From an uncultured Verrucomicrobiae bacterium (GTDB taxonomy: Bacteria > Verrucomicrobiota > Verrucomicrobiia > Chthoniobacterales > Chthoniobacteraceae): a stretch of 64,000 bases of DNA. This document shows positions 40,489 through 47,255 of this stretch, piece by piece. The translations under genes were made by a program, and so were the position numbers. Position 1 is the first letter of the stretch. Every line of letters begins with the position of its first letter. The DNA lies in contig CAWIKF010000001.1 in assembly GCA_963836755.1 (NCBI GenBank), positions 712,268 through 776,267 on the forward strand, in the 5' to 3' direction. Under the pieces are notes generated by a model, which was given only the letters and a program-made list of their open reading frames with translations, searched no databases and was not told the DNA's origin.

Positions 40489-41523
40489 ATGCCCAAATAC
40501 TGGCTCATCAGCGATCGCAACAACGGCCCCGGCGGTATCGGAACCGGCACAGGCCGCAACGTCCCCGGCCTCACCTACTTCGTCAGCGACGGCGGGCCGT
40601 TGAACAACATCGCCAACTGGAAAAAAGTTTCCCACGACCAATTCCAGAAGCTCCTCTCCGCCGCCGCCGACTCCTTTCCCGCATTGCCGCAGGGCGAAAA
40701 CGAAAACCAGAGCCACGTCACCATCCTCATCCACGGCTTCAACGTCAGCTTCGACCATTCCACCAGCTTCTACGAGCAACTCTGCGGCAAACTCTTCGAC
40801 GGCCCAGACAGCCTCGGCCTTTGCATCCTCTACGACTGGCCCTCGCTCGGCAACGTCGTCGGCTACGAACCCGACCGCGCCATGGCCCGCGCCTGCGCCG
40901 GCGACCTCACCGACATCCTCAGCGAGCTCTTTGACTGGCTCATTAAAAAACAGCAAACCGCCATCAACAGCGACGGCGACCCCCAGAAAGCCTGCAAGGC
41001 CAAAGTCTCCGTCATCGCCCACAGCATGGGCAATTACGTCCTGCAAAAAGCCATGGCCGCCGCCTGGACACGCAAAAACCAGCCGCTCCTCGTCAGCCTC
41101 ATCAACCAGCTCCTCATGGTCGCCGCCGATGTCGACAACGACCTCTTCGACACCGGCGCGCCCGACAACGACGACGGCGGCGCCATCGACAACCTCACCT
41201 ACCGCATCACCGCCCTCTTCAGCGGACGCGACGCCGTCCTCGGCTCCTCCGCCGGCTTGAAACATTTCGGCACCCGTCGGCTCGGGCGCAGCGGCCTCGC
41301 GCACGAGCCGCCCCTCGTCACGCAACTGCCCGCCACCGACAACGTCTGGGACATCGACTGCTCCAGCTTCTTCCCGCCGAGCGTCAATGGCCTGAACATC
41401 CACGGCGCATATTTCGTCACCGACAGCGTCATCGCCCTCATGCGGCAGATCTTGAAAGGCCTCGACCGCGGCGTGCTCGAGACCACCGGCGTCACGACCG
41501 GCCACGCATGGCCCGTTTCCTAA
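40489..41523 (+). CDS. DUF900-like alpha/beta hydrolase
   Basis: IHGFN, WPS, AHSMG nucleophile, AADVD, terminal H. Confidence 0.85.
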   Translation: MPKYWLISDRNNGPGGIGTGTGRNVPGLTYFVSDGGPLNNIANWKKVSHDQFQKLLSAAADSFPALPQGENENQSHVTILIHGFNVSFDHSTSFYEQLCGKLFDGPDSLGLCILYDWPSLGNVVGYEPDRAMARACAGDLTDILSELFDWLIKKQQTAINSDGDPQKACKAKVSVIAHSMGNYVLQKAMAAAWTRKNQPLLVSLINQLLMVAADVDNDLFDTGAPDNDDGGAIDNLTYRITALFSGRDAVLGSSAGLKHFGTRRLGRSGLAHEPPLVTQLPATDNVWDIDCSSFFPPSVNGLNIHGAYFVTDSVIALMRQILKGLDRGVLETTGVTTGHAWPVS

Positions 41524-41577: not shown

Positions 41578-42291
41578 GTGCCGCGCAGTTACTACCAAAT
41601 GATCATCCCCATGAACGTCGACGTCGACGGCGCGCCAAACGCCTACGGCCCAGCCGGCCTCCCGACCCTCGACGACGAGCGGAACGCCCGCTATTGGGTC
41701 AACCGCCAGCCCACCGACCGCGTCGCAGGCTACCGCACCCACGACGGCACATGCCGCACCCCCATTTTACAAGGCCCCGCCGACCCGTTCCCCGGCTACT
41801 ACATCTCCACCAGCGGCTACGAAGACATCCGCAACGCCAACGAAAACGACCCGCGCCGCTACGTCAACGCCGCCGAAATCAACTACACCGTCCTCGGCAC
41901 CGCCGCCCAGCAAGCCGGCGTCCTCCCCGGCGACTTCTGCACCGTCCACAGCCTCCGCACCCGCTTCGTCGCCTACGCCATCGTCGGCGACACCGGAAAC
42001 TCCAGCGGCGCCGAAGGCTCCCTCGCACTCCTCCAGCGCCTCGGCTACACCGTCCGCGACGGCCGCTCCGGCTCCGTCGAGCAGGCCGAAATCGTCGTCC
42101 GCCACTTCCCCGGCTCCAATCCCGCCCACCTCTTCTTCCACACACAGGCCGATCTCGAAGACGCCGCACGCAGCCTCGATCTCGACATCGACTTCTCCGA
42201 GTTCCATCCCGGCGACCCCGGCAAACTCATCCTCCAGGCCGTCGCCGCCGGCGACCCCGCAGCAGGCCAGCCCGGCACGGCACAAATTTAA
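41578..42291 (+). CDS. GH75 chitosanase-like glycoside hydrolase
   Basis: MNVDVDGAPNAY, YVNA..INY.VL, AIVGDTG...EGS.AL. Confidence 0.65.
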   Translation: MPRSYYQMIIPMNVDVDGAPNAYGPAGLPTLDDERNARYWVNRQPTDRVAGYRTHDGTCRTPILQGPADPFPGYYISTSGYEDIRNANENDPRRYVNAAEINYTVLGTAAQQAGVLPGDFCTVHSLRTRFVAYAIVGDTGNSSGAEGSLALLQRLGYTVRDGRSGSVEQAEIVVRHFPGSNPAHLFFHTQADLEDAARSLDLDIDFSEFHPGDPGKLILQAVAAGDPAAGQPGTAQI

Positions 42292-42292
42292 C

Positions 42293-42586
42293 ATGAGCCA
42301 CCTCCTCGTTCGGCAAAAAGTAGCCGACTTCCGCCACTGGAAACGCGCCTACGACGCCCATCGCCCCGCGCGCGAATCCGCCACCCTGCACGAAATCGCC
42401 CTCTTCCACGATCAGGAAGAGCCCGACAACATCCACGTCCTTTTCAAAGTGGGCGACTCGGAAAAAGTCCGCGCCTTCATCGCGTCGGAAGATCTGCGCG
42501 AAACCATGCGCACCGCCGGCGTCATCGACACCCCGAGCATCCACTTCCTCACCGCCGCCTCCGCCGCGAAGCTGCCCTCAAACTAG
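42293..42586 (+). CDS. Small dimeric alpha-beta-barrel ('cyclase'-like) hypothetical protein
   Basis: VADFRHWKRAYDA...LRETMRTAGV. Confidence 0.6.
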   Translation: MSHLLVRQKVADFRHWKRAYDAHRPARESATLHEIALFHDQEEPDNIHVLFKVGDSEKVRAFIASEDLRETMRTAGVIDTPSIHFLTAASAAKLPSN

Positions 42587-42600
42587 GAACGGATCGACCT

Positions 42601-43209
42601 ATGCGCTCCCCTTACACCGGCATCCTTCTATCACTCTTTACATGCATTGGTTCGGGAAACACCAATGCGGGTCAAAGGCTGATCGCTGACCCTGTAAAGG
42701 ACTTCATCGCGGATGGACACCATTTTCGGAAGGACATCCCGCTACTACGCATCGACGTCGACATGAACAACGATGGCTACAAGGAAACCCTCCTCTCATG
42801 GGCCGATGAGACCGATGGCCAGCAAGGCAACATATGGTTCGTCTATAAAGGAACTAAAAAGGGATATGTGAATCTCAACAACATCATTGAGTTTCATGGC
42901 GACTGGTTTTCCATTCGCTACATTGGGCGCCTGGGCTGCAAAGGCCTGGTTGCTTATTCCAGAGGGGGAGGCCGTATCGGGACCTATATCGCCTACGTGA
43001 TCAAAGGAGACCGCGTCATCGACGTCCAGCTGGAGGGTCTCGGCATGTATGATTCGGACAAAAAGCGTGAAGCTTTAAGCAGAAAGTATTTCGGAATCAT
43101 TGAGGGAGATACGGCTCTCAAGACTCCTGCCCCCGTGAAGGAACTCTACCCGCCCGAACTGGCCGCCAAATATCACCTGCCGCTGATTTACCATCCACTC
43201 CCATGGTAA
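42601..43209 (+). CDS. Secreted hypothetical protein, lower GC
   Basis: Signal-like N-terminus; DMNNDGYKE Ca-loop-like motif. Confidence 0.6.
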   Translation: MRSPYTGILLSLFTCIGSGNTNAGQRLIADPVKDFIADGHHFRKDIPLLRIDVDMNNDGYKETLLSWADETDGQQGNIWFVYKGTKKGYVNLNNIIEFHGDWFSIRYIGRLGCKGLVAYSRGGGRIGTYIAYVIKGDRVIDVQLEGLGMYDSDKKREALSRKYFGIIEGDTALKTPAPVKELYPPELAAKYHLPLIYHPLPW

Positions 43210-43248: not shown

Positions 43249-43521
43249 TTCTTCCGCACGGCAGACTCCTCCTGCCGCACGGTGGAACGACTTCACCGCA
43301 CGGTGGAATGGAGTTACCGCACGGGAAAACCAATGTTTGGACGCGGCGAAGCGTTCTGCCATGCGGTGGAGCGGTTCCACCGTCCGGCAGCAGCGTTCCA
43401 CGGCGCGGCAGGATCATTTCACCGCACGGCGGGACGGTTCTGCCGTGCGGCAGGAGGAATCAACCGTGCGGCAGAATCATTCTACCGTGCGGCAGAATCA
43501 TTTCACCGCAGCCGCCTGTCT
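43249..43521. repeat. 13 x 21-bp tandem array of degenerate 18-bp palindromes TTCYRCCGYRCGGYRGAA + 3 nt
   Basis: Units in exact phase at 43249, 43270, 43291 ... 43480, 43501 with no indels. Confidence 0.92.
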
Positions 43522-43609
43522 CTGTAGACGGCTCGGAAGTGTAGCGAAAGCATACAGAACTCGAACCAACTAACAACGCAGTCAGTTTACCAATAGAAAC
43601 CAAAAAATT

Positions 43610-44308
43610 ATGGCAAAATCAGATTTCGTCGACTCGAACGACGACAAGTTTTCGGCGCAACAGCAGGTCTACAAAACCAATATCCCCAGCTACGCCACCG
43701 ACCTCGGCGTGACCCCGGCTCAAGTGGCATCGCAAGCGGCGGATGCCAATTACTTCACCTACATCATCGCCTGCCAGGAGATCATGCAGAACGCGGCGCA
43801 GCAATGGACTTCCTGGAAAGACCTCATCCGCGACGGCGGCACGCCTCCCGCCGCCGGCGCCCCGGTGCTGCCGGTCTTCCCGCCGGTCGTCGCCTCCGTG
43901 GCGCCCGGCGTCGAATCGCGCTACCGCGCACTGGTGAAACAAAATAAAAGCAAGACCAACTACAACGATTCCATCGGACAGGCCCTCGGCACAGTCGGCG
44001 CAGAACAAACCGCGCCTGATCTAACCACAGTGCAACCCGAACTCGACGCCAAAATCAGTGGCACCACCGTGAATGTTGGCTGGGGCTGGGGTGGCAACAG
44101 CGCCTTCCTCGACATGATCGAGCTACAAGTCGATCGCGGCGACAGCAAAGGCTTCGTCATGCTGGCCTACGACACCACGCCCAACTACACCGACACCGCC
44201 CCATTCCCCGCCACGCCCGCGAAGTGGACCTATCGCGGCATCTACCGCGTCGGCGACAAACAAGTAGGCCTCTGGAGCAAGCCGGTGAGTGTGACGGTGG
44301 GTGGGTAG
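43610..44308 (+). CDS. Hypothetical protein: helical N-terminus plus FN3/Ig-like C-terminal domain
   Basis: A-rich leader; beta-rich C-terminus W.YRGIY...GLWS.PVSVTV; no signal peptide. Confidence 0.8.
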   Translation: MAKSDFVDSNDDKFSAQQQVYKTNIPSYATDLGVTPAQVASQAADANYFTYIIACQEIMQNAAQQWTSWKDLIRDGGTPPAAGAPVLPVFPPVVASVAPGVESRYRALVKQNKSKTNYNDSIGQALGTVGAEQTAPDLTTVQPELDAKISGTTVNVGWGWGGNSAFLDMIELQVDRGDSKGFVMLAYDTTPNYTDTAPFPATPAKWTYRGIYRVGDKQVGLWSKPVSVTVGG

Positions 44309-44340
44309 TTCAAGATATAGAACTTACTGTGAAAACCGAT

Positions 44341-44482
44341 ATCGAAACCAGCACGCCACAGCGCAACGACTTCCAACCCGCCCGACCTCGGCAAGGCCAT
44401 CTATTATGCCCTCCGCTGGAGCGGAACCAAAGGCGACCCCGGCCCCTGGAGCGCGGTGTATACAGCCGTGGTGCCTGGATAG
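44341..44482 (+). pseudogene. Orphan C-terminal fragment homologous to the preceding gene
   Basis: With one extra C near 44383 removed: IETSTPQRNDFQPADLGKAIYYALRWSGTKGDPGPWSAVYTAVVPG*. Confidence 0.6.
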
Positions 44483-44505: not shown

Positions 44506-45495
44506 ATGAAACTCACTTACGCTCACCTAATTGTTTCGACCTTTGCGCTTTTTCTTCTAAGCGGCTGCTTTGACTCCGCAGTAAAAAAAGCGGCGGAAGA
44601 CATCGATCGTCAAGCATACATGTTACAGCAGGAGAAGGGGGATATCAGCGCTACATACAAGCAATCGATTGCTGATCTCCAGAAGGCAAGTCAGACAGAG
44701 TTAGCGAACGAGGTTCAAAACGTGCTGGACCGTTCAGTAGATGGAGCAGCGGAGAAAACTAGTTTTGAACTAGACTTCGTTCGCAACCGTTCTGCCCAAA
44801 CCCTGAGAAAAGTCGCCGATGTCCTACGGGGAGGTAAGAAGGAGCTTATTTCATCACCGGAAATCGGTGACTGGACGCCGAAGAAGATCGACCTATACCT
44901 ACCGGCTGAACGCCGAACCAGCTTGGAGTTTTCAGGTTACGACCTAAATAACAAAACAAGTGACGGGAAAGGCCTTCGGATCGTTCTGCTGCTGTCGGAC
45001 GGTTCTAGTTCCGACGTTTCAGAACACCTTTATAAGACTACGTTCTACCACGCGGTGGTTAACACGAGCGGAAGTGGACTCCAATTTCCACAGAATAGCA
45101 AGGAACTCAGATTATTGTGGGGCGATACTTTATTGTCTCAAATCCCAGTGTTACTGCCTAAATTCAGTTGGCATCGTTCTGACAACGCCGGGACAGCTTA
45201 CTCAAAGACGTTTAGTTTCATTTCCGAAAACGAGGCCGGCGTAGATGGCGGAAAAATAGCGAGTGGACAATTCACGCTGGGTATTCCAGATGCTCGAATC
45301 TACCGAATTGACTTTCGACACGAAGGCGATGGTGCTCCTTGGAATTACCATCCTACAAACGCTCCTCCTAACGAATATCAAGGATGCACAGAGCTTTTAG
45401 ACGGTGGAAAAAGTTTTAAGTGGACGCGCCGATGGGCTGGCAAACCAACGACCGAGTATTACACGGCTTTTTACGAAATCTGGCAAACGGACTAA
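44506..45495 (+). CDS. Hypothetical lipoprotein (coiled coil plus beta domains), low GC
   Basis: Lipobox LLSGC at residue 21. Confidence 0.75.
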   Translation: MKLTYAHLIVSTFALFLLSGCFDSAVKKAAEDIDRQAYMLQQEKGDISATYKQSIADLQKASQTELANEVQNVLDRSVDGAAEKTSFELDFVRNRSAQTLRKVADVLRGGKKELISSPEIGDWTPKKIDLYLPAERRTSLEFSGYDLNNKTSDGKGLRIVLLLSDGSSSDVSEHLYKTTFYHAVVNTSGSGLQFPQNSKELRLLWGDTLLSQIPVLLPKFSWHRSDNAGTAYSKTFSFISENEAGVDGGKIASGQFTLGIPDARIYRIDFRHEGDGAPWNYHPTNAPPNEYQGCTELLDGGKSFKWTRRWAGKPTTEYYTAFYEIWQTD

Positions 45496-45509
45496 CGGCA
45501 AGCCTGTCA

Positions 45510-45833
45510 ATGACCACATTTGAGGTGAAGATTCCTGCCGGACAGACTGTCGACGTCGCCCAATACGTCAATATGTCCGGCACGTTGAATATTCTAATTC
45601 GCACTCGTGATGGTTCTAATCACCTTCCTGCTTGTTGGTGGATCGCTTGGGGTTTTGGCTCCGTGTCTCAGTTGGGAGAGCATAAAGACCATTTTACTAC
45701 GGATATTCCGGTTAGTTGGTGGCGAGGAGTTGTGCATGCCAAACTTCGAGCATCCGCAGATGATACTGACACCGTCTTAACGATCGGGGAAAACGGAGAG
45801 CTAGATTTCAGCAAAAGTTTTACGTGGCCTTGA
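45510..45833 (+). CDS. Small hypothetical protein
   Basis: ORF 14 bp after the lipoprotein gene, similar low-GC composition. Confidence 0.6.
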   Translation: MTTFEVKIPAGQTVDVAQYVNMSGTLNILIRTRDGSNHLPACWWIAWGFGSVSQLGEHKDHFTTDIPVSWWRGVVHAKLRASADDTDTVLTIGENGELDFSKSFTWP

Positions 45834-45968
45834 ACAGGGCAATTAACCATCAAATATAGATGATCAGTCTGAGCCGGTCGGCTGCCACCGCACGAAATGG
45901 AAGTGACGCGATCCCGCTCACCGCATTGTAGTAAAAGCGCGTGTGCCGAAGATTTAACGAACCGTTTT

Positions 45969-47255
45969 ATGCCACGTAAAAGATCAGCTGCCGTCTACTG
46001 GATGCCTTTTTGCGTCATGAGCATTCTCGCAAAGGCCGCGGAACCGGCGGAGGCGCCGACTCCGGCGCCGGCGGATGTGGTGGTGACGGATTCGGATCAA
46101 TACGGGGAGATTCATCTCGACTCGATGATCGCGCTGCATGGGGCAGGGTTGCGGGCTTGGGAGGAGCAGACGCCGAAGAAGGATCTGGAGGTGTATGTGG
46201 ATGGGATTTTGATTCCGCTGCCGCAGTCGCAAATCCTGCTGAGCAAGCTGCGCGATGATTGGATCAGCGTGATTCTGACGCGCGATGCGACGGACCAGGC
46301 GAGCCATGACGCGTGGGGGCCGATTCTGGAGCGGTCGATGCATTACATCGGCAAGACGCCGCATCTCGTGGATGTGACGCTGGGCCGGCAGGGGGAATTG
46401 CCGCTGCCGACGAAGGCGCGGCTGCCAATGATGATCGTGGATCGGACGTGGTTTTGGTTTTGGCTCCTGGGAATGGCGGCGCTGGCGGCGTTGCTGTTCT
46501 GGCTGGGGAAAGAGAGCGATTTGCTGCGCGATCAAGGGCCGGACCCGGCGGGCGGGCGGAAGCCTTTCAGCCTCGCGAGGACGCAGATGGCTTTCTGGCT
46601 CTTCGTGGTCGTGGCGTCGTATCTTTTCATCCTGATTGTCACCGGCGACACGAATACGATCAATGATTCGGTGCTCGGCTTGATGGGGATCATCGCCGCG
46701 ACGGGGTTCGGCGCGGTGATGGTGGATGCGTCAAAAACGAGCGCGACGCGGGCTCAGCGCGATGCGGCGCAGAAGACGCGGTCGGAGTTGCAGATGAAAA
46801 AGACGGTGGCGCCGCTGACGCCGGCGGAGGAGACGCAGCTCGCGACGGCGATTGCCGATGTGGCCCGCCGCCGACTCCGCCTCGCCCTTCCGCTCACGGT
46901 CGCGCTCCTCACCGCATCCTGCTGCAGCATGAAACAGCAGGCGCTCATCCGCAAACCGCAGACCCTCGCATTGATGGACAGAGCCAAAGCCGAATCCTTC
47001 AACGCCAACCAATCCGCCGTGCAAGCCCTCCAGCGAGGCATGAGCGCCGACTACGCGAAAGTCAGCGCCAACCCCTCAGCCAAGCCATGCGCCGAGCAAT
47101 GGACAATCCTTTCCCACCGCATCGACAGCTTCCTCGACCGCTGGCACACGAAAAAACAAAGCGCCGACGCCTCACCGGGCACCGGCACACTCAGCCCCGC
47201 ATTCGTCGATGCCGCCAAGGAACCGATAGCCGGCTCCTTCGACGCCATCCGCTGA
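45969..47255 (+). CDS. Chimeric ORF: truncated paralog of 51181-52326 fused at ~46861 to a lipoprotein-like remnant
   Basis: Near-identical peptide to the 51181 protein up to ETQLA..AD..R, then a signal-like LALPLTVALLTASCC segment. Confidence 0.7.
   Translation: MPRKRSAAVYWMPFCVMSILAKAAEPAEAPTPAPADVVVTDSDQYGEIHLDSMIALHGAGLRAWEEQTPKKDLEVYVDGILIPLPQSQILLSKLRDDWISVILTRDATDQASHDAWGPILERSMHYIGKTPHLVDVTLGRQGELPLPTKARLPMMIVDRTWFWFWLLGMAALAALLFWLGKESDLLRDQGPDPAGGRKPFSLARTQMAFWLFVVVASYLFILIVTGDTNTINDSVLGLMGIIAATGFGAVMVDASKTSATRAQRDAAQKTRSELQMKKTVAPLTPAEETQLATAIADVARRRLRLALPLTVALLTASCCSMKQQALIRKPQTLALMDRAKAESFNANQSAVQALQRGMSADYAKVSANPSAKPCAEQWTILSHRIDSFLDRWHTKKQSADASPGTGTLSPAFVDAAKEPIAGSFDAIR

Follow-up and report, generated by a model that had tools for sequence, protein, structure and literature searches.

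An array of 21-bp-phased degenerate dyads upstream of a 232-aa FN3-like gene is one of many related elements that mark gene families in a subset of Verrucomicrobiota

We analysed a 64,000-nt stretch of DNA from an uncultured Verrucomicrobiae bacterium (assembly GCA_963836755.1, contig CAWIKF010000001.1, positions 712,268-776,267; hereafter the window), in which 13 tandem 21-bp units (the array) lie shortly upstream of a conserved, uncharacterised gene for a protein of 232 amino acids (aa). The array is real, far beyond chance and non-coding. In one subset of soil Verrucomicrobia, paralogs of the gene and at least three co-distributed gene families are marked by the same architecture. The array thus represents a wider class of upstream elements restricted to a lineage, rather than a private system of array, gene and gene fragment. 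It probably helps control the downstream genes in a so far undescribed way. The features of the locus, in window coordinates, are as follows.

43249-43521, no strand assigned: tandem array, 13 units of 21 bp (Tandem Repeats Finder (TRF), phase table, lag-21 identity and position weight matrix (PWM)).
43517-43529, minus strand: end motif, a degenerate copy GTCTACAGAGACA of (C)TACAGAGTAAA (flank listing).
43530-43609, plus strand: spacer of ~80 bp from the array to the start codon, presumed promoter and short leader (sequence).
43610-44308, plus strand: gene for the 232-aa product, uncharacterised family (open reading frame (ORF), homologs, AlphaFold2 model, FN3 structure matches and dN/dS).
44333-44482, plus strand: decayed 3' end of a gene of the family type, comprising the last FN3 strands and the stop codon (translation, BLASTP).

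The array unit is a degenerate dyad, TTC-YR-CCG-YR-CGG-YR-GAA (YR, pyrimidine-purine step), followed by a 3-bp linker that is mostly TCA. It can also be read as a GCAGAAT-C-ATTCTGC dyad with the linker at the centre. TRF reported period 21 at 43275-43324 (2.4 copies, 86% matches) and at 43375-43508 (6.4 copies, 72%), and period 84 at 43353-43510 (80% matches). When the array was tiled by 21 from position 43249, the CCG-YR-CGG core stayed in register. Its identity at lag 21 was 0.587, compared with a mean of 0.245 and a maximum of 0.348 at other lags, and the maximum over lags in 1000 shuffles did not exceed 0.387. The motif TTCYRCCGYRCGGYRGAA, at up to three mismatches, was found 14 times in the window vs. 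1.63 expected (sd 1.15), a count reached in 0 of 100 shuffles; 10 of the 14 matches fall within the array and every one of these is in 21-bp phase. The central step in 11 phased units is CA (5), TG (4), TC (1) or CG (1). A preliminary description of this DNA had listed 13 exactly phased units. The array and its 21-bp phase were confirmed, but only 10 of the 13 units fit the consensus; the decayed ones are at 43312 (core intact, right arm decayed), 43333 (degenerate) and 43501 (half unit). Self-complementarity of single units is imperfect, the best one pairing at 14 of 18 positions. The core-motif cluster of the array was found once in the 3.18-Mb genome (4 contigs). The array is flanked by a 202-aa ORF ending at 43209 and by the 232-aa ORF, with a gap of ~100 bp to the latter, in agreement with the short distance noted earlier.

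We examined the linkage of such arrays to the gene family. A profile search of six-frame ORFs in the 3.18-Mb genome found eight family members, and all eight have an array of ~21-bp period located 41-453 bp upstream, on the 5' side. The array units differ greatly from paralog to paralog, and five of the paralog loci have no neighbour gene in common. Homolog loci with at least 450 bp of upstream sequence were then taken from public genomes and metagenomes, and the 550 bp upstream were scored for a lag-21 signal (z ≥ 5). The signal was present upstream of 49 of 53 homolog loci, whereas it was seen within 2 of 55 gene bodies and in none of 45 regions downstream; the tested loci include the near-duplicates L089/L093, L095/L096, L111/L112, L118/L119, L129/L130 and L025/L109. 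The preliminary description had treated the array as a cis feature that should recur as a 21-bp autocorrelation upstream of homologs, and both the homologs and the paralogs bear this out. Several homolog loci also have, some hundreds of bp before the 21-bp array, a perfect or near-perfect tandem tract in which an 8-bp unit is repeated 5-14 times with 98-100% matches (L016:231-314, L026:2080-2194, L029:2303-2356, L036:2101-2173 and L007:2431-2470). Tandem 8-bp tracts are typical of slipped-strand phase variation.

Whole-genome TRF analysis indicated that the window array is one of many. Of the 311 TRF rows, period 21 accounts for 111, period 42 for 39 and period 63 for 18. The rows merge to 99 arrays, 63 of which are at least 90 bp long (long arrays) and fall into several unit families. 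By rough gene calls, 36 arrays are intergenic, with 19 between tandem, 9 between divergent and 8 between convergent genes; the frame-model gene caller puts spurious ORFs over arrays, and the 27 arrays called 'genic' are thus unreliable. Genes for small hypothetical proteins (200-350 aa) follow many of the arrays, and some of these proteins end in an FN3 domain. We examined three other array-linked families of small proteins. Comparison of the 232-aa gene family with these three by hhalign gave no homology (probabilities 0.1-1.4%), and their patchy distribution among 40 relatives is the same as that of the FN3 family. A lag-21 signal was detected upstream of 20 of 20 homologs of the three families (from G001, G002, G011, G014, G018 and G028) vs. 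0 of 20 on the gene side. In a few cases the repeat is truly part of a coding sequence. One of these is a prophage gene next to the gene for a GP7-type capsid protein, in a prophage-like gene row (L059) at C2:1826001-1846000 of the window's own genome, G000. The row contains a GP7-type major capsid protein (PF20911, E 2.7e-15) and a period-42/63 repeat within an upstream 178-aa ORF. The 178-aa ORF is probably a coiled-coil scaffold protein with a coding repeat.

Long arrays were also counted in sampled parts of eight genomes with or without the FN3 family.

G000: family present, 18 long arrays, 800 kb sampled.
G024: family present, 8 long arrays, 400 kb sampled.
G028: family present, 3 long arrays, 240 kb sampled.
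G002: family present, 2 long arrays, 160 kb sampled.
G022: family absent, 0 long arrays, 400 kb sampled.
G030: family absent, 0 long arrays, 400 kb sampled.
G027: family absent, 0 long arrays, 200 kb sampled.
G020: family absent, 0 long arrays, 37 kb sampled.

Long arrays were found in four of four family-holding and zero of four family-negative genomes; the sample is limited to eight genomes, kin among them are not independent, and some of the G028 and G002 contigs were picked for family genes. The closed three-part system of the preliminary description was not upheld: the fragment behind the gene is a decayed gene end, the array is one of 63, and other families are marked as well.

To see what is conserved in the unit, we compared 65 phased units from seven orthologous loci (L001, L002, L016, L017, L018, L028 and L033), whose proteins are 49-66% identical to the window's. 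The consensus over these units is ATTCTACCGCACGGCAGAATC. Synonymous divergence (dS) between the window gene and L002, L033 and L123 is 1.0-1.4, and the unit is kept among orthologs despite this. PWM information is symmetric around the dyad, with TTC, CCG, CGG and GAA high. Positions 5-6 and 15-16 retain only the pyrimidine-purine step, in 41 and 43 of the 65 units, respectively. No covariation was detected at 14 position pairs in the core-centred and linker-centred registers (all P ≥ 0.126 vs. a shuffle null). Watson-Crick pairs at the YR positions numbered 23 and 20, compared with 26.0 and 24.8 expected, and arm mismatches were roughly equally G-T (60) and A-C (75). There is thus no sign of selection for pairing, either as RNA or as a cruciform; the lack of covariation, the near balance of G-T and A-C and the symmetric conservation fit readout by protein or by DNA shape. 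On the alignments, the selected feature is a symmetric DNA consensus, neither a hairpin nor a peptide. Such a pattern would be expected if a dimeric protein bound there or if DNA shape were read, and the symmetric dyad site of the preliminary description was retained in this form.

Among the candidates scored, 742 were homologs of the 232-aa product at E ≤ 0.001; the family is restricted to Verrucomicrobiota, and its named members are annotated as 'hypothetical'. The Protein Atlas gave unnamed Verrucomicrobiota clusters only. The product had no match in Pfam (including the fn3 hidden Markov model (HMM)), PHROGs, NCBIfam or PADLOC (0 matches for 7 proteins in the latter), and a sequence search of the PDB gave just two weak matches at chance level. 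The gene is under purifying selection (dN/dS 0.18-0.60 over 21 pairs). In the AlphaFold2 model (mean predicted local distance difference test, pLDDT, 87.6), residues 11-75 form a long helical hairpin at the N-terminus, which is followed by a Pro-rich linker, by two short helices and, at the C-terminus, by a beta-sandwich. The modelled sandwich has the seven-strand layout of a fibronectin type III (FN3) fold and matches FN3 structures (Foldseek E 8e-5; VIA Z 11.5, rmsd 2.1 over 91 residues), so that the gene was aptly called FN3-like; a wide structure search was dominated by this domain. A phage origin of the family was considered and rejected: no relative was found among viral contigs, and BFVD matches came from the FN3 domain alone (TM 0.25-0.35).

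The adjacent product had been suggested as a binder of the array. It is acidic (pI 4.82; 4.23 for the N-terminal 80 residues), with a single short basic segment, and no recognised DNA-binding fold was found in its 232 aa, which are modelled as helical hairpin plus FN3. Two paralogs, P4 and P5, are 73% identical and share an identical basic segment, and the units upstream of them are unrelated (AATCCTAGGATT-type vs. GGTGGCCACC-type). Because the product is acidic, lacks a recognised DNA-binding fold and has such closely similar paralogs behind unrelated units, the neighbouring protein probably does not bind the array.

The reading that we favour, and hold tentatively, is that the array is a helically phased DNA platform upstream of a promoter, bound by a postulated factor and belonging to a class that marks several co-distributed families. 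Its degenerate sites with two-fold symmetry are spaced exactly two helical turns apart, which would place all of them on one face of the DNA, just upstream of the presumed promoter of the helical/FN3 gene. A dimeric or oligomeric DNA-binding factor, encoded elsewhere, would assemble cooperatively on these sites and set downstream expression. What the data show directly is a real and non-coding array, a symmetric constraint on its sequence without pairing covariation, a conserved linkage to the gene families and co-occurrence with them across genomes; protein binding, cooperativity and the effect on transcription are inferred. Of the earlier proposal of a cis array for cooperative binding of a dimeric protein, the cis linkage and the symmetric DNA site were kept, the adjacent product was dropped as the binder, and cooperativity stays conjectural.

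Several known systems share parts of this layout. In the sopC centromere of plasmid F, a 43-bp unit is repeated 12 times in tandem, and SopB binds the inverted repeat that every unit contains. Like sopC and the parC sites of R1 and pSK41, the array is a long head-to-tail series of dyad units with a helically commensurate period, and by analogy it may offer a multi-site platform for cooperative protein binding. Unlike them, it is chromosomal, has ~60 counterparts per genome, is located 5' of small uncharacterised genes and varies in unit by locus; an adjacent parA/parB operon was not found, Pfam searches of eight neighbouring ORFs giving a DUF900 hydrolase only. ArgR operators are 18-bp imperfect palindromic ARG boxes located 2-3 bp apart, with the consensus TGAAT-W4-ATTCA. 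The geometry is the same here, with an 18-bp dyad plus 3 bp giving 21 bp and adjacent sites on one helical face, and GAAT/ATTC is present in the array arms. However, ATTCTACCGCACGGCAGAATC is unlike the ARG box, the downstream gene is FN3-like and not an arginine gene, and arrays have 9-13 boxes vs. one to three for ArgR, with dozens of unit types. Plasmid iterons are 17-22-bp direct repeats bound by Rep. The unit length and the tandem layout on one helical face resemble iterons, but the array units are dyad-symmetric, no Rep family was found among the neighbours, the locus does not resemble an origin, and there are many chromosomal copies, the 63 arrays being spread over chromosome contigs. 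A CRISPR array requires unique spacers, whereas the units here abut with 3-bp linkers and no spacers, and no Rfam CRISPR family matched the array. The preliminary description had placed the array outside CRISPR, iteron and repetitive extragenic palindromic (REP) contexts, and the comparisons agree with it on all three, REP elements being treated below. Full-text literature searches returned no description of such arrays in the titles and abstracts of the papers retrieved.

A number of observations weigh against the platform reading. The binder stands as a postulate. A promoter scan found no consensus sigma-70 site between the array and the gene; the one site that it reported lies within the array and on the minus strand. 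The palindromes of single units are weak, with ~60% of arm positions complementary, and dyad symmetry is only mildly enriched class-wide, 12 of 53 consensus units reaching at least 7 of 10 pairs vs. ~10% of shuffles. The remaining four points also speak for the strongest of the alternatives, that the arrays are selfish or neutral period-locked minisatellites resembling REP elements and bacterial interspersed mosaic elements (BIMEs), dispersed and quickly turned over, which settle in permissive intergenic DNA, so that the gene linkage would reflect co-mobility or tolerance. First, eight of the 36 intergenic arrays by rough gene calls sit between convergent genes, so that the 63 long arrays with their several unit families occupy all intergenic contexts. 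Second, in three close orthologs (L017, L018 and L028) array identity (0.78-0.82) is not above that of four-fold sites (0.75-0.82), so that constraint does not show at this scale. Third, for four array sites (L060, L061, L063 and L064), the congener loci that still match a flanking gene have no array next to that gene; a fifth site, L065, is without a usable flank match, and flanking synteny is mostly lost at the sites examined. Fourth, homology between array copies in G000 starts at a common end motif, as in copies of a dispersed element. The presence of one Y1 transposase gene in the genome points in the same direction.

On the other side, the arrays are always 5' of their genes, ~40-450 bp from members of four gene families, across genera and families, and the unit is conserved at dS 1.0-1.4. 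The transposase and the end motif, examined closely, also count against selfish repeats. The genome has one clear Y1_Tnp gene (C2:2206408, 82.2 bits) and one marginal match at cut-off (C1:60318, 21.5 bits). The clear one is of the IS200/RAYT type (REP-associated tyrosine transposase), and on either side of it lies one of two perfect 42-nt inverted repeats, with an internal hairpin each (C2:2206206-2206863; L134:1299-1956). These repeats occur as two copies in the genome, at that locus only, and are unlike any array unit. A REP/BIME unit is a stem-loop with a terminal GTAG or CGTC tag, according to one survey (PMC3733652). The same survey describes such elements as intergenic, palindrome-bearing, tandemly reiterated and lineage-restricted, features that the arrays share (PMC3733652), and it reports an abundance of GTAG REPs in Verrucomicrobia, namely in Opitutus terrae (Di Nocera et al. 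2013, PMC3733652). The arrays differ in that the PWM of 65 units has no invariant end tetranucleotide, GTAG occurring only as a within-arm variant and CGTC not being fixed either, and in that the only clear Y1 gene has unrelated flanking hairpins. They also differ from REP/BIMEs in having no single genome-wide unit, a strict 21-bp period and a fixed 5' position before particular families.

The end motif lies 16-60 nt outside many arrays in G000, oriented inward (e.g., C1:29995, C1:228984 and C2:713759), and 16 of the 31 exact CAGAGTAA sites in G000 point into an array. It was absent from 48 family loci, of which 47 belong to other genomes, and likewise from 8 G024 arrays (0/48 and 0/8), and is treated as a species-specific feature of G000. 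Two roles considered for the motif CAGAGTAAA were rejected: a general class feature, given its absence at those loci and arrays, and an outward promoter, the next gene being co-directional in just 9 of 21 cases. Taken together, we consider selfish or neutral repeats unlikely, though not remotely so. One array illustrates the turnover. The proximal upstream sequence of a sulfite-reductase-like gene is similar in three species by eye, and a 9-unit array is present in G000 only. There (C2:1422565-1422755, L060) the 9-unit 21-bp array lies upstream of a conserved promoter-like TTGCAA-N16/17-TAAATT, and the comparison with G002 and G001 (L070 and L072) makes this a clean case of presence vs. absence.

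A second alternative is that the array is structural DNA independent of its sequence, i.e., a curved or easily wrapped segment that acts by geometry through wrapping by polymerase or nucleoid proteins. The 21-bp alternation of an AT-rich patch (GAATCATTC) with a GC-rich core, and YR steps about every 5 bp, would suit such a segment. At positions 5-6, 10-11, 15-16 and 21-1 a YR step persists but its two bases vary, and the period is held at 21 (or 42 or 63) while the units differ completely between paralogs and families. However, within the ortholog group a specific unit sequence, beyond composition, is conserved at dS ≥ 1. We regard a purely geometric role as quite unlikely.

It was also proposed previously that the array forms a multi-hairpin RNA leader. 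As a 5' leader or a separate non-coding RNA, its stem-loops would stabilise the mRNA or bind a protein. The plus strand folds with -151.8 kcal/mol (z -7.4 vs. shuffles), and end motif, array and gene are co-oriented at two paralog loci of G000. But the minimum-energy fold is made of long-range pairing between units, as in any palindromic repeat, and at the window locus and at the paralog P2 the end motif is directed away from the gene. The arms did not covary in either register over 65 (47) units, nor did G-T mismatches (60) exceed A-C (75). Rfam gave sub-threshold miRNA-like matches only, with no family over threshold, so that neither a curated model match nor compensatory stem changes were found. 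The RNA leader was abandoned as a description of the array, and a hairpin RNA of any kind is improbable.

The weakest alternative, that the array encodes an ordinary heptad-repeat protein or a translated leader, draws on the three plus-strand frames that are all open across the window array and on gene callers having extended the homolog P0002 through its array, but it is very improbable. Conservation is dyad-symmetric, and low-information unit positions have no 3-periodicity. In orthologous arrays, stop codons interrupt one or two of the plus frames, the closed frames vary by locus, and 22- and 43-bp spacings shift the frame; elsewhere in the class, five arrays have no open frame on either strand. 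No single open and conserved frame with 3-periodic constraint was found, so that one of the two results named in the preliminary description as refuting it, synonymous-biased conservation as a heptad-repeat protein, was not obtained.

The sequence behind the 232-aa gene was examined as well. As noted earlier, a homolog fragment does follow the gene: positions 44333-44479 match the C-terminus of a distant paralog (G000 C2:2229027) at 14 of 32 identical residues (E 3e-8, BLASTP, single comparison). In-frame stops precede the fragment, and the family HMM does not detect it. The fragment is a pseudogene remnant, the decayed end of a gene. At the other end of the gene, homologs L003, L004, L010, L012, L017, L018 and L028 have an in-frame N-terminal extension of ~55 aa (MKP...W...LEPGDPG...KPxR), which starts ~165 nt before the main start codon and ~60 bp past the array. 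A TTTAC-like hexamer is located 7-8 nt before the extension start in these homologs, and the distance from hexamer to start may reflect leaderless transcripts. Upstream of the array, a DUF900-type alpha/beta hydrolase is encoded at 40489-41523 (E 2.5e-20). The ORFs at 41578-43209 and 44506-47255 are without a family match, and the array lies inside a block of uncharacterised genes.

Beyond the phased platform bound by a postulated factor, a wider proposal can be made, which we put forward as speculative and doubtful. A subset of Verrucomicrobiota may have an undescribed gene-marking system, in which at least four families of small helical/FN3 proteins are gained and lost together, each behind arrays that are locked to 21 bp and free in sequence. 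The arrays would be read by dedicated machinery that recognises phased dyads or geometry, and that possibly also generates and disperses them. Verrucomicrobia abound in soil and peat, but few have been cultured, and next to nothing is known of how they control their genes. The rule found here, a 21-bp-phased array before every examined member of several uncharacterised families, would give a handle for finding the reader protein, for connecting hundreds of hypothetical proteins with a common biology and for asking why the length of a repeat persists rather than its sequence. Phased multi-site platforms of this kind may also be useful as parts for synthetic regulation.

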